32,339 nt of DNA from an uncultured Candidatus Saccharibacteria bacterium (lineage in GTDB: Bacteria > Patescibacteriota > Saccharimonadia > Saccharimonadales > CAYVSP01): NCBI GenBank assembly GCA_964625325.1, contig CAZVBA010000003.1, forward strand, positions 1-32,339, written 5' to 3'. The notes beneath the pieces are model-generated. The model was given only the letters and a program-made list of their open reading frames with translations. It did not search any database and was not told where the DNA came from. Position numbers and translations under genes: made by a program. Of this stretch, positions 8,762 through 31,305 are shown one piece after another (positions within the stretch are counted from its first letter, which is position 1; every line of letters begins with the position of its first letter).

Positions 8762-10015
8762 ATGCTTGGTAAGACAATACGATTGATAAAAGGACTATGG
8801 CACTCGCCTAGCGATCTCAACGCCGAGGAGTTGCAGTCGGCGCGTGATTATATACATGGCTTTTGGGAAAAATTAATTCGATTCCATCCCGAAGATGACC
8901 AAACGCTGCTTGGTTTGCCCAAACCATATCTAGTGCCATCTTATGAAGAAGGGCATGAGTTTGATTTTAATGAGCTGTACTACTGGGACAGTTACTTTAT
9001 GGTCCAGGGCATGTTGGACGAGGATCATAAAGAGCTGGTAATGGGAGTCTTGGAAGATTTACTAACTCTTTTCAAGCGTTTCAAGACAATCCCCAATGCC
9101 TCGCGAACTTACCTGACGGGCCGTTCTCAGCCGCCATTTCTAACCAGTTTTATCTGGGACGTCTATGAGGCCTACAAACTGGATGAAGCCTGGCTAAAAG
9201 ATGCCATCACGACTGCCGAGGCCGAATATCAGACAGTCTGGATGGGAACTACCAAACCTAATGCTCGCCAGGTCTATCAAGGCTTGAGCCGCTACTATGA
9301 CTTAAATTACATAAATGATCTGGCAGAAGCCGAGAGCGGCTGGGATATGACGCCGCGCTTTAACCGCAAGTGTCTGGATTATCTGGCAGTCGATCTTAAC
9401 GCGTTGCTTTATAAATACGAAATGGACTTCGCCCGTTATTACCAACTGGTTAAGGATAAGGCAATGACCGACAAGTGGGAGTCGGCGGCTCAGCAGCGCA
9501 AGGCTGCCATGAGAAAACTGATGTGGAGCAATGTCCGCGGCTGGTACTTTGATTACAATTTTGCAAAACACAAACGCGGTGCGGTTAACTCGCTGGCCGG
9601 GTTCTATCCGGTCTGGGCCGGCATGGTCGACAACGACCAAATGACCCAGATGGTAAAGACGCTGCGCCGCTTTGAAAGCAAAGGCGGCCTGACTACAACC
9701 GACAGCCAGCAGCTTAGCCAGTTTGTCCCCGGTGCCATTCCAACCCAGTGGGCCTATCCTAATGGTTGGGCACCACTCCAATTTCTAGTCGTCAAGGGCC
9801 TGCAGCGTTACGGCTACAATTCCGACGCTCGGCGGATTGCTCACAAGTGGCTAGGCACTAATCTAGATTGGTTTTTGGCGCACGGTGTCTTTTTAGAAAA
9901 GTACAATGTGGTCAGTCCGTTGGATCCGCCAGCCAAAGGACTGTATCCGTCACAGACCGGTTTTGGTTGGACTAACGCAGTATTCGAACGATTTTGCCGC
10001 GAATTCATTGATTGA
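8762..10015 (+). CDS. Alpha,alpha-trehalase (GH37), no signal peptide
   Basis: FNELYYWDSYF, PNASRTYLTGRSQPPF, AESGWDMTPRF, VDLNALLY, QWAYPNGWAPLQ, EKYNV, QTGFGWTN. Confidence 0.93.
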   Translation: MLGKTIRLIKGLWHSPSDLNAEELQSARDYIHGFWEKLIRFHPEDDQTLLGLPKPYLVPSYEEGHEFDFNELYYWDSYFMVQGMLDEDHKELVMGVLEDLLTLFKRFKTIPNASRTYLTGRSQPPFLTSFIWDVYEAYKLDEAWLKDAITTAEAEYQTVWMGTTKPNARQVYQGLSRYYDLNYINDLAEAESGWDMTPRFNRKCLDYLAVDLNALLYKYEMDFARYYQLVKDKAMTDKWESAAQQRKAAMRKLMWSNVRGWYFDYNFAKHKRGAVNSLAGFYPVWAGMVDNDQMTQMVKTLRRFESKGGLTTTDSQQLSQFVPGAIPTQWAYPNGWAPLQFLVVKGLQRYGYNSDARRIAHKWLGTNLDWFLAHGVFLEKYNVVSPLDPPAKGLYPSQTGFGWTNAVFERFCREFID

Positions 10016-10024
10016 TAATCTGCC

Positions 10025-10161
10025 GCTGGCCTGTTTTCTGGCGCAGCCAGAAATGCCGCCAGCTCTTGGCGCATCCCTGTGTCAGAATTTCCGGTGCTCC
10101 CTTACCGTATGTCACATACGGTTCGGTTCGCTCCTCAATTCTTCCTTGGGCTGCATCCAAG
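10025..10161 (-). repeat. Structured dispersed repeat, copy 1
   Basis: Reverse complement: CTTGGATGCAGCCCAAGGAAGAATT...ACCGTATG-TGA-CATACGGT...AATTCTGACACAGGGATGCGCCAAG followed by hairpin GCTGGC..TTCTGGC-TGC-GCCAGAA..CAGGCCAGC; matches copies 2 and 3. Confidence 0.85.
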
Positions 10162-10189
10162 CAGATTACCCTCAATGAATCGCGGAAGG

Positions 10190-11623
10190 TTAGGCTTGAA
10201 CTGTCTGAGCTAACGGTAAAGTTATGGTGAAGGTGCTGCCTTTGCCTTGCTGGCTGGTAACCGTGATGTCACCGCCGAACTCACGCACCAGCAGCCGGGA
10301 TATGTAGAGGCCGATGCCGGTGCCTTCGTAGTTGTATTCCATCAGGCCGGTGCCGCGGTGGAACTTGGTGAACAGCTTGGGCATTTCGTCGGGACCAATG
10401 CCGATACCACTATCGCTGACAGTAATGACGGCCGAGGTGCCACGCTGGCCACACTCCAGCGTTACCTGGCCGGTAGCCTTAGTGAATTTGATGGCGTTAT
10501 CCATTAGATTCCAGATGGCAATTCGTAAATGGTGGGGCGCGACTACCACCATCACCGGCGTGGCCGGGGCTTTATAAACAAACTGCAATTGATGGTCTTC
10601 GGCCAATTGCTTAGCCTTGCCGGCAATCTCGTTAGTCAAACTCAGCAAATCGACTTGCTCACTGCTGCCCGCCAGCTTCTGGCCGGCTTCGAGCTCGGAA
10701 ATAGTCAAAATGTCCTCGGCCAGGGTGCCCAGCCGGGTGCTATTAGCGGCAATGGTGTTAACCATTTTGCTGATATTTTCCGGTAGTTGCATGGTTTTCA
10801 TAACTTCCAAGTAACCGTTAATCGTCGTTAGCGGCGTACGCAGGTTGTGCGATGTGATGGTCATAAATTCGGTCTTGAGTTTGTCGACTTCCTGCAGCTT
10901 GGTGATGTCGGCTTTCAGCGAATCGGCCATGGTGTTGACGGACTGGGCCAAGTCGCCGATTTCGTCATGGCGTTCCTCGGGGATTTCCTTTTCCAAAGCG
11001 CCAGCACTAATGGCCAGGGCGGCCTGGCTGAGCCGGCGCAACGGCTGGAGCAACAAGAAGTTCATGGCCACAAATAAGGCGGATCCGGTCAACAGCAAGG
11101 CAAATAGGGCCAGCCCGATAATCGCCAGCACGCCCTGGCGAATACTGTGCTCAATCTCAGCATTGGACACCACATAAAGCACTCCATAGCGGTGGACGCC
11201 GTTATCCTCAATGAAAGGCTGAATTATGCCGGTTAGCTCGCCGCCTGAGCCATGTAGGTAAATACGGTCAAAACTAGTCGCTTGCTGATTGGTTACTGCC
11301 GGCAGCGGTTGTTTGTATTGCTGGTAGGCAACCTTACCGTCGATACCATAGACCGCCACATTGGTTATGGTTGGGTTGAGCAGTGTGAATTGCGCAACCT
11401 GCTGGTCAATCCGCACTGTGCCGGAGTCTTTGTAGATTTCAAAAGTTTTGCCGATCGGTTCGGTGGCCAGGGCGGCAAACGATTGAGCTTGGTCGGTCAG
11501 ACTCTGACGTTGCGAATGTACGGTGTTGCGAACGAACAAGATCGCCAGGACGCCGAAAATGAGCAACAACAAACCACCAAGCAACAGTAAAACCTTGATA
11601 CGGATATTGAGGCGCAATTTCAT
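10190..11623 (-). CDS. Sensor histidine kinase (extracellular sensor, HAMP, HisKA, HATPase_c), no adjacent regulator
   Basis: 2 TM; PLRRL...DEIGDLAQSVNTMA HAMP; SHNLRTPLT; NLMDNAIKFT; DSGIGI; GTGIGLYI. Confidence 0.92.
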   Translation of the reverse strand: MKLRLNIRIKVLLLLGGLLLLIFGVLAILFVRNTVHSQRQSLTDQAQSFAALATEPIGKTFEIYKDSGTVRIDQQVAQFTLLNPTITNVAVYGIDGKVAYQQYKQPLPAVTNQQATSFDRIYLHGSGGELTGIIQPFIEDNGVHRYGVLYVVSNAEIEHSIRQGVLAIIGLALFALLLTGSALFVAMNFLLLQPLRRLSQAALAISAGALEKEIPEERHDEIGDLAQSVNTMADSLKADITKLQEVDKLKTEFMTITSHNLRTPLTTINGYLEVMKTMQLPENISKMVNTIAANSTRLGTLAEDILTISELEAGQKLAGSSEQVDLLSLTNEIAGKAKQLAEDHQLQFVYKAPATPVMVVVAPHHLRIAIWNLMDNAIKFTKATGQVTLECGQRGTSAVITVSDSGIGIGPDEMPKLFTKFHRGTGLMEYNYEGTGIGLYISRLLVREFGGDITVTSQQGKGSTFTITLPLAQTVQA

Positions 11624-11710
11624 AGCCCACCGGAACCGTTAATTATCATTTCGGTTACGTTTATCTTGACAGCTCTGGTCGGGCGACGTCAAGCCAGAAC
11701 AAACAACGAC

Positions 11711-13405
11711 TTATTTAGCGTAGGCGGTGGCCCAGTTGGCGCCAAATGGTTCGCCACCACGGTCACGAGTAACCACAAACGAAGGGTCGGTGTACCAATG
11801 CTCGAGACGGACATACAGCGGAATGATACCTGCGTTGTCGCTCAACTCCTTGGAAATCTGCTGCAGTTGAGCTAGTCGCTTAGTGGCATCGATGGTTTTG
11901 TTGGATTGATTGAGCAAGCTGGTGATGGTCGGCGTGCTATACCACTTTTTAACGTAGCCGGTGTAGATGTCGCTCATATCCAGTAACTGGGTGGAAACGC
12001 TGTAGGCCCAGGAGTCAAACTTGCCGGCGGCAATATCGGCCTCAATTTTGTCGGAATCCTGATAGAGCACGATGTTGAAAGTAATACCGGCCTCTTTGGT
12101 TTCCTTGACTATCTCGGCTGGCAATCCGTTACCTTTCTGGTCGAACAGGGCAAAATTAATGGTCACGCCGTTGGGGTAACCGGCATCTTTAAGCAATTGC
12201 TTGGCTTTGGCAATGTCGCGGACGTGCGGCGGGATACTAGGGTTGTAACCGGGTATGGTTAATGGCGCGAGCTGATTGTCTACTTCAACTTCTACGCCGC
12301 GTGATTTTGCCAAAGCAGCGAGGTCGAGCGAGGCATAGAGGGCCTGCCGCACTTTGGTGTTGGCCACCACGAATTTCGGGTTATTGGTGTTAAAGAGAAT
12401 GACCGAGGTGCCGACATTGGGCGCGGCAATCTCTTTAAGTTTTGTGCTGGCTCGGGCGGTGGCAATGTCCGGGGCGTCAAACAACACGATGGTCGCATTA
12501 ACGTCACCCTTGGCGGCGGCGGCCGTCAGGCTCGCTTCATCCGGGAAACCTTTGTAGGTAACCGCTCTTGTCTTGGGCCGGCCACCATGCCACTGGTCAA
12601 AGGCCACTAACTGAATACTGTTCTCGTTGGGCGTTGTGCCAGGTTTGAGCGTATAAGGTCCGGTGCCGTTTTCGGCACTATCCTTTAGTTTCGACTGCGA
12701 ATCAATGATGTACAGGTAGGCCAACTTGTTCAACAGCAGCGGGTCGGGTGAAGTCGTCACAACTTTTACCTCATTATTATTGACGACCTGTACGGATTTA
12801 ATGGTATCGTCATAGATTTTGCCGAGCTCTGTAGTCTTGAAGTTTTCCAGACTGTATTTAACATCGGCTGCAGTCATGGTGCGACCGGTGTGAAACTTAA
12901 CATTTTGGGCCAGCTTGAAGTCCCACGTGTTGTCGTCCGGGTTAGTCCAACTGGTGGCTAGGTTAGGTTTGATCTGGTTGACGTTCTTGAATTGCACTAA
13001 ACCTTCAAAGGCCTGCTGGTTGAAGTCATAAGAATTATCAATATTTTTGGCATTCGGATAAAATATGGCACCTGAACCATCGGGCACCAAACCGACGATG
13101 ACTTGTGGGATATCTTTTTGGGTCTGGGTTGCCTGCTGGGTCGGTTTTTTGCTTTTGTGCAGTAGGGCGTAGGCGCCGACACCAATAGCAACCAGCAGCA
13201 GTAGAATAATTATGACAAAGAGTAGACCCTTCTTTTTACCAGGCGCCGCTGGTGGCATAACTGGCTTTGATGCAGTTGTTGGAGGTGTGGCTGCCGCTTC
13301 GGGCGGTGCCGGTGCTATGACCTGACCGCTGGCTGGTGGCGCTTCCGCTACGTTATTATCTGCAGCTTCATTCTTGTTTGGTTCGGAGTTAACGACAATA
13401 TCCAT
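11711..13405 (-). CDS. Family-5 (Opp/Dpp-like) solute-binding protein anchored by an N-terminal TM helix
   Basis: FEGLV, PNLATSW..PD..TWDFKL..NVKFH.G..MTAADVKYS, GTGPY, VRQAL, AKAKQLLKDAGY; Pro/Ala-rich N-tail, KKK, then TM, no lipobox. Confidence 0.88.
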   Translation of the reverse strand: MDIVVNSEPNKNEAADNNVAEAPPASGQVIAPAPPEAAATPPTTASKPVMPPAAPGKKKGLLFVIIILLLLVAIGVGAYALLHKSKKPTQQATQTQKDIPQVIVGLVPDGSGAIFYPNAKNIDNSYDFNQQAFEGLVQFKNVNQIKPNLATSWTNPDDNTWDFKLAQNVKFHTGRTMTAADVKYSLENFKTTELGKIYDDTIKSVQVVNNNEVKVVTTSPDPLLLNKLAYLYIIDSQSKLKDSAENGTGPYTLKPGTTPNENSIQLVAFDQWHGGRPKTRAVTYKGFPDEASLTAAAAKGDVNATIVLFDAPDIATARASTKLKEIAAPNVGTSVILFNTNNPKFVVANTKVRQALYASLDLAALAKSRGVEVEVDNQLAPLTIPGYNPSIPPHVRDIAKAKQLLKDAGYPNGVTINFALFDQKGNGLPAEIVKETKEAGITFNIVLYQDSDKIEADIAAGKFDSWAYSVSTQLLDMSDIYTGYVKKWYSTPTITSLLNQSNKTIDATKRLAQLQQISKELSDNAGIIPLYVRLEHWYTDPSFVVTRDRGGEPFGANWATAYAK

Positions 13406-13568
13406 AGATGCCCATCCTATTTTTAATACTTATGTTTATAATCGCACACCGTTATCTAGAGGTCAAATGAGGCCAGAAGTGCCACCCAAACGTATACCAG
13501 TGCTCCTTTGATACATAATTAACTGTAAGTCTTGCGCAAAGGATTACCGCGTAGCATACTCAAAGCAA

Positions 13569-14552
13569 ATGAGTGTCTTAGCTACTCAACCGGGCGGTGA
13601 AGGGGTAGTTGCTGATGGCCCGGCCGAATTTATTGAGACCGAAATAGATACACGGTTAGATTTGCCGTTTTCAGATGATGTATTAGCAGGCGGGGCAGTC
13701 GATTGGCCTGAAGGTGAAGCGGCGGCGCTTGATCAGATGCCAGGTGTGGAGGCCGAGCCCGATAGACTGCTTGATGCTGCTGCTAACCTAGGCCAGGTCG
13801 CCACGCCAGAGGTAGCCGAATTAGAGGAGTTTGATATTGTCGCCGAAATTAAAGCTCGAACGGGCCGTACTCTAACTGACCAGCAAATAAACCTACTAGC
13901 CACAATGATTAATAACCTGCCGGCCGAAGAATGGTTTCAGCGCAAGGACGTCGGTTACATTGAAGCTGAATATGTTTCAAAGGGAGCCTTTGACCAAGCC
14001 TATCATAAGCTTATAAAAGTACTCGAAGCGGCTGGTGTGGTTGAGCATAACGGCAAGGATAAATCCCAAAGTAAGCATCGGTTTATCAAGGCCTATGAGC
14101 CGCCGGCCCTTAAAGTGCAGGAGCCGGTTAGGCGCAAAACGCCCGATACTAAGCCGCCGGCGCCGCCCGCATCGGCAAGCCCTAAGGCAGCCACAAAAGC
14201 TCCCAAACTGGCCGGTCAAACAGGTGTGAGAGAGTGGGAGGCCAAACGTATGGAGGATATCAGAAGAAGAGCCCTCGAAAGAGAAGATGGGCGGTCCAAA
14301 AAAGAAAAGCGTAAAGAACAAACTCTTCAGGAGCGCCTGCAGGATTATTTGAATGGTGAAGCTGATTTCCCGACCGGCCTAAGCTTAGAAAATAGGCAGG
14401 CAGTGCGGGTTTTTCTGGGCGAATCGGCCGTGCAGAAGGAAGAGATACCCGGCTATCATAATCGCCACCGCCGACTGCAAGTCTGGCTAAACCCGCAGCT
14501 GGCATTTGTGATTGATCCAACGACAGGCAATGTAAATAAGCCAAGGAACTGA
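13569..14552 (+). CDS. Hypothetical protein (acidic N-terminus, possible winged-helix middle, basic C-terminal half)
   Basis: 327-aa ORF; promoter-like TTGCGC-17-CATACT (13532-13560) 8 nt before ATG. Confidence 0.6.
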   Translation: MSVLATQPGGEGVVADGPAEFIETEIDTRLDLPFSDDVLAGGAVDWPEGEAAALDQMPGVEAEPDRLLDAAANLGQVATPEVAELEEFDIVAEIKARTGRTLTDQQINLLATMINNLPAEEWFQRKDVGYIEAEYVSKGAFDQAYHKLIKVLEAAGVVEHNGKDKSQSKHRFIKAYEPPALKVQEPVRRKTPDTKPPAPPASASPKAATKAPKLAGQTGVREWEAKRMEDIRRRALEREDGRSKKEKRKEQTLQERLQDYLNGEADFPTGLSLENRQAVRVFLGESAVQKEEIPGYHNRHRRLQVWLNPQLAFVIDPTTGNVNKPRN

Positions 14553-14589
14553 TTACCAGTAGGTTTAAGGTATAATTTTGTTAGCTTGG

Positions 14590-14666
14590 GGGTTCTTAGC
14601 TCAGTTGGCTAGAGCGCAGCATTCACATTGCTGAGGTCACAGGTTCGAGCCCTGTAGGACCCACCA
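14590..14666 (+). tRNA. tRNA-Val (anticodon CAC)
   Basis: Acceptor GGGTTCT/AGGACCC, D arm GCTC/GAGC, anticodon stem CAGCA/TGCTG with loop TTCACAT, T loop GGTTCGAGCC, encoded CCA; TATAAT at 14571-14576. Confidence 0.95.
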
Positions 14667-14670
14667 GATT

Positions 14671-15153
14671 ATGACGACAATGACACAGCGACAAGCAATG
14701 CTTTTTGACCGCGAACTGGCGGCTTTTCAGCCGCTGCCAGATATAAACGTATTGACTATAGACCAGATTTTTCAATCTCCTAATATCTTATCTTCGGACG
14801 AAACGCTTTTTCTGGATTTTAATATGCACGATATTCCTGTAACCATGATTCGATCTCTCCGCCGGCTGACAGGTCGCCATGCCGAGTGTTTTGCCTCCAT
14901 CTACGCCGAACCGTGGGAAGCCTATTTGTTTGGAACAGTCCTGGACGCTCGACTAGACGTCAAACTGATTGCAACCGCCACCATACCACCTTCCGAAGTA
15001 AAGCCAGACGCAGTTGAGGAATGGAAAAGGTCGTATGCCCGTTTTGCCCTTGAGGCCGGATGCGACGGTGTAAAAATAGATTTTGTGCCCCACGAGCTTG
15101 GACAGCAATACTCCGATAGATTCTTTTTCATGATGCAAGAAGTAGGTGCGTGA
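14671..15153 (+). CDS. Truncated, degenerate OMP decarboxylase (PyrF)-like protein
   Basis: LFLDFNMHDIPVTM resembles FLDLKxHDIPNT with Lys replaced by Asn; ARFALEAGCDGV resembles the later PyrF helix-strand; only 160 aa. Confidence 0.6.
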   Translation: MTTMTQRQAMLFDRELAAFQPLPDINVLTIDQIFQSPNILSSDETLFLDFNMHDIPVTMIRSLRRLTGRHAECFASIYAEPWEAYLFGTVLDARLDVKLIATATIPPSEVKPDAVEEWKRSYARFALEAGCDGVKIDFVPHELGQQYSDRFFFMMQEVGA

Positions 15154-15656
15154 TGGTTCAAAGTGCCGGCATATTGGTTTATCGAAAAAGGGACGACAAG
15201 ATCGAGGTGCTATTGACTCATCCGGGTGGGCCATTTTGGGCGAATAAAGACGTCTGGTCGATCCCAAAAGGTGAGCTGGACAGCGACGAAAACCATATGG
15301 CCGCCGCCAAGCGCGAGTTTAAAGAGGAACTAGGTGTACCGCCACCGGCCGGTGAGCTCATTGATTTGGGCAGTAACAAAAGTAGCCATAAAACCAACTA
15401 TATATGGGCGGTGGAAGGCGATTTGGAGCCTAAGGACGTGCACTTGAACTCGATCTTTACTATGGAGTGGCCGCCAAAATCCGGCCAAATGCAGGAGTTT
15501 CCGGAAAATGACCGGGCCGAATGGTTCGAATTGTCGACTGCCAAAAGCAAAGTTTATAAATCCCAGACCGAATTTATCGACCGCCTAGCTGAAAAACTCA
15601 ACGTCGGTCTAGAAGCCACCGAATCCGCTGAAAATTCCCAACAAAGCCTTCTCTAA
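15153..15656 (+). CDS. Nudix hydrolase (COG4119-like)
   Basis: SAGILVYR, HPGGPFW, WSIPKGE...AAKREFKEELG Nudix box, EWPPKSG...FPENDRAEWF; TGATG overlap with the upstream gene. Confidence 0.9.
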   Translation: MVQSAGILVYRKRDDKIEVLLTHPGGPFWANKDVWSIPKGELDSDENHMAAAKREFKEELGVPPPAGELIDLGSNKSSHKTNYIWAVEGDLEPKDVHLNSIFTMEWPPKSGQMQEFPENDRAEWFELSTAKSKVYKSQTEFIDRLAEKLNVGLEATESAENSQQSLL

Positions 15657-15688
15657 GGTAGAATAACTAAGCACATCGGTTCTTCATA

Positions 15689-15827
15689 CTTGGATGCAGT
15701 ACAAGGAAGCAACGAGAATCGAGCGAATCGTATAAATGATACGGTGAGCGAGACTCGCAGGCAGCTGACAAAGTAATGCGCCAAGAACACCGGCAGAGTT
15801 CTGGCTCTGCCAGAAGCAGGCCGGTGT
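15689..15827 (+). repeat. Structured dispersed repeat, copy 2
   Basis: CTTGGATGCAGTACAAGGAAGC...ATCGTAT-AAATG-ATACGGT...GCTGACAAAGTAATGCGCCAAG then ACACCGGC..TTCTGGC-TCT-GCCAGAA-GCAG-GCCGGTGT. Confidence 0.85.
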
Positions 15828-15843
15828 GTTATGGAGAAACGAT

Positions 15844-17304
15844 ATGAACTATTACGTCACGACCTCAATTCCTTACGTTAATGGCGAGCCGCACCTCGGC
15901 CACGCTCTGGAATTCGTGATGGCGGATGTTTTGGCTCGGACGGCTCGCGCCGAAGGTAAGCCGGTGATTTTTAGCACTGGCACTGACGAACACGGCGGTA
16001 AAATCGCCGAAAAAGCCGCCGAACAGCAATTGACGCCCCAGGTCTTCGCCGACCAAATGAGCCAAAAGTTTAAAGACCTGACCAAGCTGCTGAATATCAG
16101 CAATGACCGCTTTATCCGAACGACCGATAAAGGCCACGAGCAACGGGCCCAACTAATCTGGAAGGCGCTCCAAAAAGACATCTACAAAGGCAAGTACAGT
16201 GGCTGGTATTGTACTGGCGACGAAGCCTTTTTTACCGAAGCGACGGTTAAGGAAAACAAGGGCGTTTGCCCGGCTCACAATCGGCCTTATGAAAAGGTCG
16301 AGGAAGAAAATTATTTCTTTAAACTGACCAAGTACGCGCCGCAAATCAAGCAGGCGATTGACAGCGGCACCTTCCGGATTCTGCCAGCCACTCGCAAGCA
16401 CGAAATCCTGAGTGTTATTAACGAGGGCTTGGAAGATATCAGCATCAGCCGGCCCAAAGATAAAATCGGCTGGGGCATTCCGGTGCCAGGTGATCCGAGC
16501 CACGTCATGTACGTCTGGTTTGAGGCATTGATGAACTATCTGACGGTGCTGGGCTATCCCGAGCACAATGACTTCAAGAAATTTTGGCCGGCCAATGTCC
16601 AGGTTATTGGCAAAGACATCTTGCGTTTCCACGCGGCGAATTGGCCCGGTATGCTACTGGGGCTCGGTCTGCCCTTGCCCGAAACGTTGTACGTCCATGG
16701 CTTCATCAATGCCGTCGGTGGTGTCAAGATGAGTAAATCACTGGGCAATGCGGTTGATCCAAGAGTTGTGGTGCAAGAATACGGCATCGACGCCTTTCGC
16801 TATTACTTGCTTCGCCACATTCCTAGTTATGATGATGGTGAGTTCAGCTTGGAGCTACTCCACAATGCCTACAACAATGAACTGGCTAACGAGCTGGGTA
16901 ACGCTGTCCAGCGCACGGCGGCCATGATTACGCAGTATCAACAGGGTGTGATTGGCGATATACCACCGGCCGAGCACGATGTCGAGAAATACCGCGAGGC
17001 GCTGGAAAACTGCAAGTTCGACAGAGCTCTCGACGAAGTCTGGGAGCAGGTCCGCGGACTCAACCAATATATTGACGAGGAAAAACCCTGGGAAGTCCAT
17101 AAGACCGGCGACGCCGACCACCTGCGCGAAGTACTGGCCTACCAGACGAGCTCGCTGTTGCAAATTGCCGATATGCTGGAACCATTCTTACCGGATACTG
17201 CCACCAAAATCCGCCAGCTGTTTAATGAAGGCGTAATTCGTCCGATGCAAAGCACCTTGTTTCCGCGCAAAGACAAAGACGCTGTGACGCAACAACCTGC
17301 TTAA
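15844..17304 (+). CDS. metG: Methionine--tRNA ligase, short form without C-terminal tRNA-binding domain
   Basis: YVNGEPHLGHA, GTDEHG, YVWFEAL, IGKDILRFHA, KMSKSLGN; ATG 15844 after GGAG. Confidence 0.96.
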   Translation: MNYYVTTSIPYVNGEPHLGHALEFVMADVLARTARAEGKPVIFSTGTDEHGGKIAEKAAEQQLTPQVFADQMSQKFKDLTKLLNISNDRFIRTTDKGHEQRAQLIWKALQKDIYKGKYSGWYCTGDEAFFTEATVKENKGVCPAHNRPYEKVEEENYFFKLTKYAPQIKQAIDSGTFRILPATRKHEILSVINEGLEDISISRPKDKIGWGIPVPGDPSHVMYVWFEALMNYLTVLGYPEHNDFKKFWPANVQVIGKDILRFHAANWPGMLLGLGLPLPETLYVHGFINAVGGVKMSKSLGNAVDPRVVVQEYGIDAFRYYLLRHIPSYDDGEFSLELLHNAYNNELANELGNAVQRTAAMITQYQQGVIGDIPPAEHDVEKYREALENCKFDRALDEVWEQVRGLNQYIDEEKPWEVHKTGDADHLREVLAYQTSSLLQIADMLEPFLPDTATKIRQLFNEGVIRPMQSTLFPRKDKDAVTQQPA

Positions 17305-17427
17305 CCGCTGAGCAGTTAACCCGTTGTTGCTCTTGGCGCATTACGGTGTCAGCCGTTCCAGTACTCGTGCAGCGTACCTTTGTACGCTTTACTCCGTGCT
17401 TCACGGCTTCCTTGTACTGCAACCAAG
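17289..17427 (-). repeat. Structured dispersed repeat, copy 3 (overlaps the last codons of metG)
   Basis: Reverse complement: CTTGGTTGCAGTACAAGGAAGCCGT...AGCGTAC-AAAG-GTACGCT...ACGGCTGACACCGTAATGCGCCAAG then GCAACAAC..TTAACTGC-TCA-GCGGTTAA-GCAG-GTTGTTGC. Confidence 0.85.
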
Positions 17428-17460
17428 CACAGTGTCTTTGTGTTCGGGTAGAATGATGAT

Positions 17461-18279
17461 ATGGAATTTGTTGATACTCACTGCCATATCCAGGAAGCGT
17501 CGACGGAAACTGGTGGCGATGAGTTTATGCGCCGCAAGTGGGCCGAAGCCGGTTTCAGCGACCCTTCAGCTTTAATTGCCAATGCCGCCGCTGCCGGCGT
17601 AACCCGACTTATTTGCGTCGGTTGCACGCTCCAAGACAGCCAACTGGCCGCCAAACTGGCCGCCAAAGACCAGCATTGTTGGGCCAGCGTCGGTATTCAC
17701 CCGCATGAAGCCAAGGACCACTTGGATAAAGCAAGCCAAATTGCCTTTGAAGAGCTGTTGAAATTGCCTAAAATCGTCGCCATTGGGGAGTGCGGTTTGG
17801 ATTATTTCTATGCCCACTCGCCGAAAGCCGACCAGCTGAAAGTACTTGAATTCCAACTTCAACTGGCACAGGACCATGATTTGCCCTTGATCCTGCATAT
17901 TAGAGAGGCTTTTGATGATTTTTGGCCCCTGTTTGATCGCTTTAAGGGTCTGCGTGGCGTAGTGCACAGCTTTTCGGCCCATCTACCCCAGCTGGAGCAG
18001 GCCCTCAGCCGCAACTTGTATATTGGTCTCAATGGCATTATGACGTTTACTAAAGACGCTCAACAGCTCGAGGCCGCCAAACAAGTACCATTAAATCGAC
18101 TACTGTTAGAGACCGATGCGCCCTTCTTGACTCCATCACCTTATCGTGGTAGAATCTGCGAGCCTAAACACGTAGTGTTGACGGCGGAGTTTCTGGCGGA
18201 TTTGCGCGGTGAGAGCCTGAGCGACTTAGCCTCAGCCACCACTCTTAACGCCAGCACCTTATTCAAACTTAAGGAGTAG
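17461..18279 (+). CDS. tatD: TatD-family nuclease
   Basis: DTHCH, GIHPH, IGECGLDY, HIREA, VVHSF, LLETDAPFL; common position downstream of metG. Confidence 0.93.
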   Translation: MEFVDTHCHIQEASTETGGDEFMRRKWAEAGFSDPSALIANAAAAGVTRLICVGCTLQDSQLAAKLAAKDQHCWASVGIHPHEAKDHLDKASQIAFEELLKLPKIVAIGECGLDYFYAHSPKADQLKVLEFQLQLAQDHDLPLILHIREAFDDFWPLFDRFKGLRGVVHSFSAHLPQLEQALSRNLYIGLNGIMTFTKDAQQLEAAKQVPLNRLLLETDAPFLTPSPYRGRICEPKHVVLTAEFLADLRGESLSDLASATTLNASTLFKLKE

Positions 18280-28590: not shown

Positions 28591-29922
28591 GTGAGCGGCT
28601 ATCAAATCAAACAGATTATAAAACGGCTTAAAGAGAAGGTATCTAAGCTATGGCGAAGCGGTTTGGCCGCGGCTGGCTTAGGCGTTCTCTTAGTCGCTTT
28701 AATTTTACCCTTACTAATGAATCACGCCACCGCTCTCCAAATCAATTCGCGTTCACTGACGCTCTCTACGGCTGTACCCTCGGCCGCTTCTACCTCGTAT
28801 ACTTTCGGCTTTAAGCTTGGTACCGCCGGCCAAGTCCAAGGCATGAAATTTCAAGCCTGTAATGCTGCGCTTGGTACCTGCACGGCGCCGAGTGGGTTAA
28901 GTTTCTCCAGTGCCGCAGCTCCGAGTAAAACCGGTTTTACTGGTGCCACCAACTTTACGGTTGATGGCACGGGTGCCAACGACTGTGTGGCCAGTGCCAG
29001 CATTCTATGTATTAAACGGACCGATGTAACCAGCGAAGACACGACGACCGCTAAAACTTTGTTGTTTGCGACCAGCATCACCAACCCTAGTGGTACTGGC
29101 GGTACTTGTACGACCGTCAACTGCAGCTTCTTTATTCGTATGACAACCTATACCACCAACACCTGGACCGCCGGCAGCATTGTAGATACCGGTACTGTAG
29201 CTGCATCTACGACCGCCACGCTAACCATTTCTGCCCAAGTCGCCGAGGTACTGAATTTTTGCATTGGCACCACCAGCGTCACCGACGCCACGGCCAGCCC
29301 AGGTGCCGACTGCAGCGCCATCAGTGGCACCAGCGTTAACCTTGGTACGCTGGCGTCGGGTACGATTACCACCACGCCGGTGGCGACGACCACCGGTGGC
29401 AATAACGTCAATGGTATTGCCATGTTGCGTACTAATGCCGCTAATGGTACTACCGTCAGTTACCGGGCCATTCAGGCCGGTACCGGCACCAACCACCTCG
29501 GGGCACTGCGGGTGCCAGGAGCGGTCTGTGCTTCCGGGGCCAGTAATATTGACCAGTGTTTTGCCAGCCAGGGTACTACCCAAGGAACCTTTACATCCAA
29601 TGTTGAGGACTTTGGCATGACGGTTGCAGGCACCAACTGCGGCAGCACGACCGCCTATACCTGTGCGCTGGCCAGCGGCACTAACAACCTCAAAGCTTCC
29701 AGCAACTACATTGGCGCGTCGGCAACGACCTACGGCACGACCAGTGGCTTCGCCTGGGATGAAACCGGCACCTTTGCTCAGATTGCCGCCTCAACTGGTG
29801 CTAGCACCAGCGCGGTCGATGACGAAGCGCTTATCTTAGCCTTCGCCGCTACACCTAGCACTATAACGCCAACCGGTTCATACCAGGTTCAGACCGACTT
29901 CGTGGTCGTCTCAACGTACTAA
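28591..29922 (+). CDS. Secreted Thr/Ser/Gly-rich 12-Cys surface protein, paralog A
   Basis: Signal peptide (ATA-L), RSLTLSTA, ends TPTGSYQVQTDFVVVSTY; start codon uncertain. Confidence 0.8.
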   Translation: MSGYQIKQIIKRLKEKVSKLWRSGLAAAGLGVLLVALILPLLMNHATALQINSRSLTLSTAVPSAASTSYTFGFKLGTAGQVQGMKFQACNAALGTCTAPSGLSFSSAAAPSKTGFTGATNFTVDGTGANDCVASASILCIKRTDVTSEDTTTAKTLLFATSITNPSGTGGTCTTVNCSFFIRMTTYTTNTWTAGSIVDTGTVAASTTATLTISAQVAEVLNFCIGTTSVTDATASPGADCSAISGTSVNLGTLASGTITTTPVATTTGGNNVNGIAMLRTNAANGTTVSYRAIQAGTGTNHLGALRVPGAVCASGASNIDQCFASQGTTQGTFTSNVEDFGMTVAGTNCGSTTAYTCALASGTNNLKASSNYIGASATTYGTTSGFAWDETGTFAQIAASTGASTSAVDDEALILAFAATPSTITPTGSYQVQTDFVVVSTY

Positions 29923-30039
29923 AAGCAAATTACTTCATAATATGAAATTGTGGATAAATAATGTCATAATATCGTTGAAAAGCTTGTGGTTACCCGATTG
30001 AACTGCTATATATAAGCGTATAATTCGACAAAAATAAAA

Positions 30040-31305
30040 ATGACAAAAAGAAATTATATATACAGTCGGTTACTGATAGCTGTTCTGCTGCTGGGTCTTA
30101 TTAGTGGGGCGCTGTCGAGCATTTTTGCCAGCAGAGCTAGTGCTGCCCAGTTGACCTCACGTTCCTTGACGCTTTCTACGGCAGTCATTAGTCAGACCGG
30201 CGTTAACTATGCCTTTGCTTTTACGCTTGGTACGACATCGACAGTACAGGGGCTTAAGTTTGAGGCCTGTACGGCGGCGCTTAGTACTTGTACTGCCCCG
30301 ACCGGTCTTAGTTTCTCCAGTGCGACTTTCGGTTCACAAGCCAGCTGGACTAATGCCACCAACTTTGCGGTCGATAATACCGGCGCTAACGACTGTACGC
30401 CGGCTGCCAACGTACTGTGTGCCAACCGTACTCAGGCCGGCTCGGAAACGGCCGGGGCGCGCAGTATTAACTTCGGCACCATTACCAATCCGAGCGGTGC
30501 CAGCTGCAGCAGCAATCCGAACTGTACGTTTTTTATTCACATCACTACCTACACTACCAATAACTATACTGGCGGCAGTATTACCGATACGGGAACAGTA
30601 GCCAGCTCCACCACACAAACTTTGACCATTGCCGCGCGCATTCAAGAAGTCCTTAACTTCTGCATTGGTAGTACCACCGTTAACGATGCTACCACCAGCC
30701 CGGGTACAGATTGTAGCGCCATTAGCGGCACCACCGTCGACTTGGGCGTCCTGGACTCCAGCCAAATAACCGTATCGCCCGTCTCTTCAAGTACTAGCGG
30801 TAATTCCACGAACGGCGTGGCTATGTTAAAAACTAACGCTAGTAATGGATCCAGCGTTACCTACCGGGCTATCCAGCAATCCGGCACTAATCACCAAGGT
30901 GCTCTGCGCGTGGTGGGAGCGTCGTGCAACTCGGGTACCGTTAGCACCGATCAGTGTATTACTAGTTCGTCGTCGCAGATCACCTTTACGGCCGGTACTG
31001 AAGATTTTGGCATGACGGTTGGCGGCACCAATTGCGGCAGCACCACCTCGTACAGCTGCGCCTTAACCAGCGGTACTAATAACCTGAAAGCCGTCAGTGG
31101 CTATATCGGCGCCTCAGCGACATCATATGGTACCTCAAATGGCTTCAAATGGCGCGAAGACGGCAACACCGACCAGATTGCTTCGGCCACTACGGCCGTA
31201 GATGACGAAGCGCTGATATTAAGGTTTGCGGCGACCCCCAATATCGTGACGCCGACCGGCTCCTATCAGGCCCAGGGTGACTTCATCGCCATTGCTACTT
31301 ACTAA
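30040..31305 (+). CDS. Secreted Thr/Ser/Gly-rich 12-Cys surface protein, paralog B
   Basis: Signal peptide (ASA-A), RSLTLSTA, ends TPTGSYQAQGDFIAIATY; colinear with paralog A. Confidence 0.82.
   Translation: MTKRNYIYSRLLIAVLLLGLISGALSSIFASRASAAQLTSRSLTLSTAVISQTGVNYAFAFTLGTTSTVQGLKFEACTAALSTCTAPTGLSFSSATFGSQASWTNATNFAVDNTGANDCTPAANVLCANRTQAGSETAGARSINFGTITNPSGASCSSNPNCTFFIHITTYTTNNYTGGSITDTGTVASSTTQTLTIAARIQEVLNFCIGSTTVNDATTSPGTDCSAISGTTVDLGVLDSSQITVSPVSSSTSGNSTNGVAMLKTNASNGSSVTYRAIQQSGTNHQGALRVVGASCNSGTVSTDQCITSSSSQITFTAGTEDFGMTVGGTNCGSTTSYSCALTSGTNNLKAVSGYIGASATSYGTSNGFKWREDGNTDQIASATTAVDDEALILRFAATPNIVTPTGSYQAQGDFIAIATY

Follow-up and report, generated by a model that had tools for sequence, protein, structure and literature searches.

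The 32,339-nt stretch analysed here (the window) belongs to an uncultured Candidatus Saccharibacteria bacterium (assembly GCA_964625325.1, contig CAZVBA010000003.1) and carries three copies of a structured, dispersed element which an earlier note had picked out from the sequence alone. Our analysis indicates that the element is probably an old, slowly spreading and non-autonomous family of palindromic insertions, native to Saccharibacteria and a few other Patescibacteria and comparable in kind to the Rickettsia palindromic elements. Its copies have entered many unrelated sites, namely gene boundaries, in either orientation, and the interior of housekeeping genes, and they differ between related genomes. 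They are tolerated at gene boundaries and, in one reading frame, inside proteins. All three copies of the window were confirmed in position and strand, with a mean column identity of 78% in the alignment.

Structure of the element

The element had been described as having two domains within about 138 nt. Both hairpin domains were recovered, while the extent had to be revised: each copy is about 40 nt longer (~175 nt), because 10-23 nt on each side pair with each other as an outer stem, P0. This variable stem (~10-23 bp) encloses domain 1, a rod-like hairpin, and domain 2, a second hairpin that is often present, and closes the unit into a three-way junction of ~175 nt. The shared frame CTTGGwTGCAG..AAGGAAG...CTGACA..ATGCGCCAAGA and the covarying stems were found in the copies as first reported. 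The second hairpin is present in all three copies of the window but is optional in the family as a whole, 41 of the 82 matches listed from other genomes having no domain 2. The far half of domain 1 forms the invariant core, with three GA-containing internal loops, short flanking helices and a CGTA...TACG tip; both strands of this half read GA-N5-GGA. As for the AAGGAAG/CTGAC loop, which had been taken as invariant, it is found in most copies, but a plain helix stands in its place in 3 of 17. P0 is the least conserved part of the element.

The proposal that the structure is under selection is borne out by covariation over 17 distinct copies and by compensatory changes between orthologous copies. 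Over 60 pairs, 93.5% of the cells are paired as compared to 70.6% in column shuffles (a value of 93.5% was reached in 0 of 500 shuffles), and double changes were observed in 51 of the 60 pairs against 33.1 expected. Sliding the partner by 1-3 columns lowers pairing to 29-41%. Core pairs are kept at 91% in intragenic copies and at 94% in the others. The fold is read on the given strand, because G-U cells outnumber A-C cells (375 vs. 168 in 88 copies); three columns give most of the excess, and one T-G pair is found in 69 of the 88 copies. The single-stranded form assumed in the earlier note is thus likely, with strand specificity coming mainly from the three conserved G-U columns, while RNA and single-stranded DNA (ssDNA) are not separated by these data.

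The strong covariation and the G-U pairs conserved on one strand would also suit independently transcribed small RNA (sRNA) genes, i.e., a multicopy trans-acting sRNA, which corresponds to one of the two readings originally offered, that of a multicopy non-coding RNA. We consider this extremely unlikely. No -10-like hexamer recurs at a fixed upstream distance (no position is common to 6 or more of 71 copies) and no terminator-like T run was seen downstream of the element. Furthermore, the copies are randomly oriented with respect to genes, start codons directly follow the 3' arm, and many copies are translated inside genes, 17 being sense copies within open reading frames (ORFs).

No existing Rfam family matches the element in Rfam 15 scans. 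The gathering scan of the window returned tRNA-Val only, and at E <= 10 over positions 9900-17600 a single overlap with a copy was obtained, Hrs13 at 17.5 bits (gathering score 52), which lies on the wrong strand of copy 1 and is a chance match. Likenesses to the K-turn, box C/D, the signal recognition particle (SRP) domain IV loop and the sarcin-ricin loop were considered and dropped, the loops being off the canonical forms and without an Rfam match. Full-text searching of the literature found no description of such an element in Saccharibacteria, and a perspective article on Patescibacteria contains none of the relevant terms.

Distribution, insertion sites and polarity

Further copies had been expected genome-wide. 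The source genome (G000; 740,792 bp, 63 contigs, GC 50.7%, completeness 83%) was found to contain 18 at E <= 9.1e-6 (nhmmer seeded with the three copies), and a covariance model returned the same 18 at 129 bits or more, together with one divergent copy at 40.9 bits. This divergent copy (C27:6965-7148) keeps the GA-loop core and differs in its base and second hairpin; a truncated relic (C37:1889-1941) consists of the 5' half of domain 1 only. In the same order, the whole-element covariance model matched 48 of 61 genomes (0.5-1.3 Mb in size) with 1-41 matches each, whereas 13 had no match, 12 of them being 90-100% complete. The tally includes one unpublished genome, G038, on which no other result rests. 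In an even sample of the phylum the element was present in 13 of 151 genomes; nine of these 13 do not belong to the order.

Public genomes were also searched with a 22-base degenerate pattern from the far half of domain 1, which gave at least 113 stretches, 80 of them listed. The titles of the latter name Candidatus Saccharibacteria, Saccharimonadales, Saccharimonadia or Nanosyncoccus in 66 cases and another or no taxon label in 14. All 80 listed stretches were confirmed by the covariance model, with 82 matches: 19 long (175-182 nt), 41 short (124-140 nt, those lacking domain 2), 14 intermediate and 8 partial. The genomes G005 and G060 carry 42 and 38 copies, respectively. In the complete genome of oral taxon 488 strain 106.1.1 there is a single copy, in the short form. 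Two copies may lie back to back 3 nt apart (G046:C15:29678-29861(-) and 29865-30040(+)), and tandem copies 100-140 nt apart were seen in G060 (C2:100916-101095 with 101235-101410, and C2:212909-213085 with 213182-213357).

The orientation of 87 copies, drawn from G000, G005, G060 and others, is unbiased with respect to their neighbours (+E+ 23, -E- 20, +E- 8, -E+ 5, one neighbour missing 5). The neighbours are ordinary, unrelated housekeeping genes and no partner recurs; genomes with a single copy have no common neighbour either (mraZ/rsmH, rplT/RNase H, umuC, histidine kinase, RNase J/UDG). The idea of a metG leader was rejected, as only 1 of 80 metagenomic metG loci has an upstream copy. Together with the random orientation and the unrelated neighbours, this count argues against a cis-regulatory leader such as a riboswitch, a T-box or an aminoacyl-tRNA synthetase operator.

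In total, 26 of the 87 copies lie wholly inside ORFs. Among the 23 that were re-examined, 17 are sense and 16 of these are in one frame, adding a shared hydrophilic peptide of ~55 residues that resembles LDxxQGxxEQRTEPYxKYGEG...SAKS..GVSGSA..Q. According to Pfam, the hosts of the inserts are EngA, PolA, FolD, RluD, Dus (3 copies), UDG, UvrA, UvrD, DnaG and UmuC, while TGT carries its copy antisense. Pfam domains are found on both sides of the insert, or stretched over it, which indicates that the hosts are real genes. The RluD insert occupies the same site in G005 and G060. In nine of nine alignments (8 host genes, RluD twice) the G000 orthologue has no insert, the net difference being 43-58 residues. 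One dihydrouridine synthase ORF (L077, G005:C3:107358-110539, ORF 907-2370) contains three in-frame sense copies. Besides TGT, the antisense ORFs with copies are 90-113 residues long and consist mostly of the element itself. By a rough value, the antisense strand is stop-free in 47-53 of 88 copies per frame, and gene callers may annotate spurious ORFs of 90-113 residues there (L026, L034, L061, L108, L029).

Comparison of empty and filled sites in relatives, proposed in the earlier note, revealed both kinds. Copy 3 is absent from the metG-tatD junction in G001, G002 and G005, and relatives without it have unrelated MetRS C-terminal tails past the conserved FPRKD in the alignment; in the window, it is the antisense strand of copy 3, from the P0 3' arm through the linker into domain 2, that encodes the last 10 codons of metG and its TAA stop (17274-17304). 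For 14 of the 27 G005 copies tested, the flanks are collinear in G003, a genome of the same genus, where 5 sites are clearly empty, 3 filled and 6 unclear. Copy 1 has orthologues in G001, in G005 and, much changed, in G003, and the end of the trehalase-family gene carries an element in G001, G003, G005 and G060. Orthologues of copy 2, with compensatory changes in P0, were found in G002, G005 and the metagenome locus L301. A MetRS scan of metagenomes for near-identical strains offering exact empty sites gave relatives of at most 77% identity.

The insertion is polar. On the 5' side, gaps are negative in 3 of 60 cases and otherwise range from 1 to 656 nt; on the 3' side, they are negative in 44 of 57 and between -69 and +2 in 46 of 57. 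Where the downstream gene is in the sense direction, its start codon directly follows the 3' arm (MutM, TsaB, MetRS and others), and a convergent gene has its stop codon at the 3' arm or inside it. For copy 2, GGAG lies within the P0 3' arm and the ATG at 15844 directly after the arm. It is because the outer P0 pairs on the 3' side are often the codons, the stop codon or the ribosome-binding site of the host that we regard insertion as polar. For example, the last five codons and TGA stop (10013-10015) of the trehalase-family gene, read in antisense, make up the 3' arm of copy 1, and ~20 nt of this host sequence recur in inverted, near-exact form as the 5' arm. At the end of the G003 trehalase gene a 28-bp P0 stands on the homologous codons, yet the core is just 60-64% identical to the others. 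In PolA of G005 the conserved I-L-L of the LLQIHD motif comes from the outer 8-9 nt of the 3' arm, to which the outer 5' arm is exactly reverse-complementary; this insert is absent in G003 and G000. The 3' arm likewise contains host sequence in UvrD (R-G), UmuC (V-Q), NusA (ribosome-binding site) and TyrRS (3' untranslated region), and at the TyrRS site the empty G003 allele has no pre-existing inverted partner. The inner P0 pairs travel with the element (CAAGnTTCGC/GCGAAnCTTG occurs in five copies of three genomes), whereas the outer pairs are locus-specific.

Origin and maintenance of the copies

Stems can be extended by template switching at quasipalindromes. The closing stem of the element may have arisen in this way after insertion, or as an inverted copy of the 3' flank at insertion, or by targeting of short palindromes. 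It could also be argued that DNA mechanics alone, i.e., quasipalindrome correction by template switching together with gene conversion, keep the arms complementary with no selection on structure. The mirroring of up to ~20-28 nt of host coding sequence by the 5' arm at the trehalase gene end agrees with this, and the nearest relatives of copies often lie at other loci or in other genomes (18 of 20 for G060), as expected of gene conversion. Correction should, however, erase mismatches, yet the internal loops and the T-G pair are conserved across the phylum, and the polarity (host 3' arm, copied 5' arm) has no visible orientation pattern along the G060 chromosome. We thus believe that this explanation is very unlikely.

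A number of observations weigh against an insertion family of the Rickettsia palindromic type. No mobilising enzyme was found, Y1_Tnp (PF01797), RVT_1 (PF00078) and DEDD_Tnp_IS110 (PF01548) being absent in searches of six genomes of the source family (f1; 77-97% complete, 4-42 copies each). There is hardly any sign of recent movement: 135 distinct copies (from G000, G001, G002, G005, G017, G020, G060 and others) include only one identical pair, G000 C2:36700-36878 and C63:1068-1246. This pair involves a metagenome contig of 2.5 kb and could be an artefact of assembly. The next best within-genome pairs have 88-92% identity, and no young copies at 93% or more over 120 nt or more were found in G005 or G060. 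The two members of the identical pair have 13 nt of the 3' arm but only 7 nt of the 5' arm in common, a misfit to a simple rule that the 3' arm is host sequence, and the pair fits cleanly none of the three accounts of the closing stem given above. In addition, there are three cases, not predicted by random insertion, in which copies that look different sit at exactly one and the same nucleotide of the host: the trehalase end (G003 vs. G005), the RluD site (G005 vs. G060, where the copies share 59.5% identity without being nearest relatives) and the metG end (G000 vs. metagenome locus L275). Finally, conservation in place equals or exceeds that of neighbouring coding DNA and is accompanied by compensatory changes, which is unexpected of a purely selfish relic. 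The orthologues of copy 2 are 91, 79 and 78% identical, as compared to 64-73% for their 400-nt flanks, and those of copy 1 are 72-78% identical, as compared to 72-75%, the flanks being mostly coding in both cases. Between G000 and G005, copy 1 shows 10 compensatory doubles, 1 uncompensated double and 6 single breaks.

The same conservation, with orthologous copies at least as conserved as the flanking genes, would be at home in an unlikely alternative, in which the element is a structured module used by the host: an RNA (or extruded DNA) platform for a conserved Saccharibacteria protein, acting in mRNA processing, stability or translation start. Insertional spread would then account for the origin of the copies only and not for their being kept, and at metG the closing stem would hide the ribosome-binding site. 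Compensatory changes in place, among them those in P0 where it covers the ribosome-binding site of metG (four lineages), are in agreement with such a role, as are the persistence of invariant GA loops over phylum-level distances and the retention of 91% of core pairing in intragenic copies. The GA-N5-GGA on both strands forms a pseudo-two-fold pattern that would suit a dimeric binder. On the other hand, a host module is hard to reconcile with random orientation to unrelated housekeeping neighbours, with the lack of any copy in the 13 order genomes mentioned above, most of them nearly complete, and with the single upstream copy in the 80 metG loci. Copies are also found within coding sequence, where they are translated, and truncated relics exist.

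As to mobilisation, the earlier note had considered a REP-like element or a MITE (miniature inverted-repeat transposable element) moved by an enzyme encoded elsewhere. The dispersed insertion element stands, and this was the nearer of its two readings, while the closest analogue turned out to be the Rickettsia palindromic element. The HUH/RAYT or reverse-transcriptase partner envisaged with it did not emerge: Y1_Tnp was detected in 18, RVT_1 in 10 and DEDD_Tnp_IS110 in 2 of the 61 order genomes, and neither of the first two was found in the source family. In G060 (38 copies, 98% complete) RVT_1 and IS110 were not found. Reverse transcriptase does not track the copies, as a retroelement (SINE-like or group II remnant) would imply; a cognate Y1 gene was not found in every repeat-bearing genome, as a REPIN-RAYT pair would require; and the housekeeping neighbours, together with the rarity of PF01548, do not point to an IS110 bridge RNA. 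In G032, G017, G050 and G060, multicopy ORFs of ~205-260 residues align with Y1_Tnp over profile positions 38-120 only, its C-terminal two thirds. There are also five full-length IS200-like genes in G050, all identical, and short contigs of G023 carry four RVT_1 ORFs at full length (413-484 residues), which may be group II introns.

A classical MITE would descend by deletion from an insertion sequence (IS) of the DDE or HUH type and be moved in trans by the parent transposase via terminal inverted repeats. The element is indeed small, non-coding, dispersed and hairpin-forming, and some relatives have Y1_Tnp genes, two of the three partial Y1_Tnp ORFs of G060 lying within 2 kb of a copy. Even so, this origin is highly improbable. 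There are no conserved terminal inverted repeats, because the termini (P0) are the least conserved part, and neither a parent IS nor, in any profile or covariance-model search, a longer version with an ORF between the two halves was found. The three Pfam families were not found in the six copy-rich source-family genomes. No target-site duplication flanks the identical pair, the only young pair available; the flanks of the element are inverted-complementary instead.

If the copies are insertions of the Rickettsia palindromic kind, as we favour, the conserved GA-loop rod would be a handle recognised on one folded strand (RNA or ssDNA), either by the replication and repair functions of the host or by machinery whose genes lie elsewhere. 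Template switching at the hairpin, or else selection, would then make the 5' arm a mirror of the host sequence found on the 3' side. Spread would be rare, and copies may persist because the landing sites do little harm. A tentative and rather unlikely extension is an insertion pathway without any known transposase family, in which the element, with the GA-loop rod as its handle, would enter just upstream of a host segment and take its 5' arm as an inverted copy of that segment. If true, such a pathway would explain the strict 3' polarity, the locus-specific closing stems and, in a homing form, the reoccupation of the same nucleotide by different-looking copies. As part of the same proposal, the copies may also have come to serve, across the genome, as binding sites of a conserved Saccharibacteria protein, because the fold is kept as strongly as protein-coding sequence.

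Setting in the window, significance and known systems

The coordinates of the three copies and of the genes around them are collected in the table.

Table. Element copies, their parts and neighbouring features in the window
Feature	Position	Strand	Remarks
Copy 1, whole element	9999..10183	-	Between convergent genes; covariance-model match 10003-10178, 154.6 bits
Copy 1, P0 5' arm	10183-10163	-	
Copy 1, domain 1	10161-10065	-	
Copy 1, domain 2	10063-10025	-	
Copy 1, P0 3' arm	10021-9999	-	
Copy 2, whole element	15672..15848	+	Sense, ahead of metG; covariance-model match 161 bits
Copy 2, P0 5' arm	15675-15687	+	
Copy 2, domain 1	15689-15785	+	
Copy 2, domain 2	15787-15828	+	
Copy 2, P0 3' arm	15831-15843	+	
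Copy 3, whole element	17268..17444	-	Antisense between metG and tatD; covariance-model match 166.9 bits
Copy 3, P0 5' arm	17440-17429	-	
Copy 3, domain 1	17427-17332	-	
Copy 3, domain 2	17330-17289	-	
Copy 3, P0 3' arm	17285-17274	-	
Trehalase-family glycoside hydrolase gene	8762..10015	+	Pfam PF01204, E 2.8e-87; 3' end forms copy 1 P0 3' arm
Histidine kinase gene	10190..11623	-	Pfam HATPase_c, HAMP, HisKA; stop 6 nt upstream of copy 1 5' arm
tRNA-Val (CAC)	14590-14666	+	Sole Rfam/ARAGORN match in the window
NUDIX gene	15150..15656	+	Pfam PF00293; ends 18 nt before copy 2 P0 5' arm
Methionyl-tRNA synthetase gene metG	15844..17304	+	Pfam PF09334, E 2e-100; start abuts copy 2
TatD-family gene	17461..18279	+	Pfam PF01026, E 1.9e-69; 20 nt past copy 3 P0 5' arm

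The window was also compared with contigs from four soil DNA runs of one study. Contigs from these runs, which contain the source organism, break within copies 2 and 3 (window positions 15717-15822 and 17360-17392), as expected, because a repeat confounds short-read assembly. Two joints with short sides were also obtained, 17273>17461 (side 20, with 36 other letters in between) and 9991>10224 (side 26); they are compatible with relatives that lack copy 3 and copy 1 but are too weak to serve as evidence. Contig depth over tRNA-Val is ~140 to 555-fold, to which many organisms presumably contribute.

Among the ultrasmall Patescibacteria, the Saccharibacteria are the lineage that has been studied best, and they have now become genetically tractable. 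By our estimate the element makes up ~1% of some of their very compact genomes, on the basis of the copy number of G005. In practice, it breaks metagenome assemblies, gives rise to spurious antisense ORFs, shifts apparent gene starts and ends, and adds ~55 residues to enzymes such as PolA, UvrA, UvrD, DnaG and EngA. It therefore matters for annotation, structure prediction and the design of genetic tools.

A number of known systems resemble the element in part. The attC sites of integrons and the ends of IS200/IS605 elements are recognised by structure rather than sequence, as a fold of one strand in which extrahelical or mismatched bases serve as recognition marks. The element is similar in that its structure is conserved more than its sequence and its fold is strand-specific; those systems, however, need IntI or a Y1 transposase and sit in cassette arrays or at IS ends, neither of which was seen here. 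The IS110 bridge RNA is a two-domain structured RNA of ~175 nt with internal loops, and IS110 elements have no terminal repeats or target duplications. Two domains, length and internal loops are shared with the element, but bridge RNAs adjoin a recombinase gene and their loops are variable guides, whereas the loops of the Saccharibacteria element are its invariant part. REPs and REPINs are structured, multicopy and long-lived extragenic palindromes which are vertically inherited and undergo compensatory changes. All of this is paralleled here, while REPs are ~20-40 nt long and extragenic and the element is ~175 nt long and also intragenic. Moreover, REPINs need a single-copy RAYT, and PF01797 was not found in the six copy-bearing genomes of the source family.

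ERIC/IRU, Correia (CREE), BOX and RUP are imperfect palindromes, 100-200 nt in length, that lie at gene boundaries in either orientation, and some of them are co-transcribed and alter the fate of the mRNA (in part after PMC10969869). They possess conserved terminal inverted repeats and usually target-site duplications, unlike the Saccharibacteria element, whose termini are its most variable part and whose identical pair shows no duplication. The Rickettsia palindromic elements are described in section 4.2 of PMC10969869 as lying in frame in unrelated genes, where one frame gives a shared peptide, and as having no recognisable transposase. The likeness, as far as that section describes them, comprises a palindrome of ~130-180 nt, tens of copies, a reduced genome, and intergenic as well as in-frame positions in housekeeping genes (PMC10969869). 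A dispersed multicopy palindrome, and in-frame copies in unrelated genes with a shared peptide, are indeed what our searches revealed. This is a likeness of kind, set by description and not by homology, and the host phylum differs. The Saccharibacteria element also departs from its Rickettsia counterparts in its three-way-junction form, the optional second hairpin, the GA loops that are invariant across the order and beyond, and a 3' arm that is often host sequence. Three features go beyond the Rickettsia analogy: in-place conservation equal to that of coding DNA, 3' polarity with a host-built stem, and reuse of identical sites. The element would represent the Rickettsia phenomenon for a second time and independently, in a different lineage with a reduced genome, and, unlike Rickettsia, Saccharibacteria offer hundreds of genomes in which its spread can be studied and a structural handle with which its machinery could be fished out.

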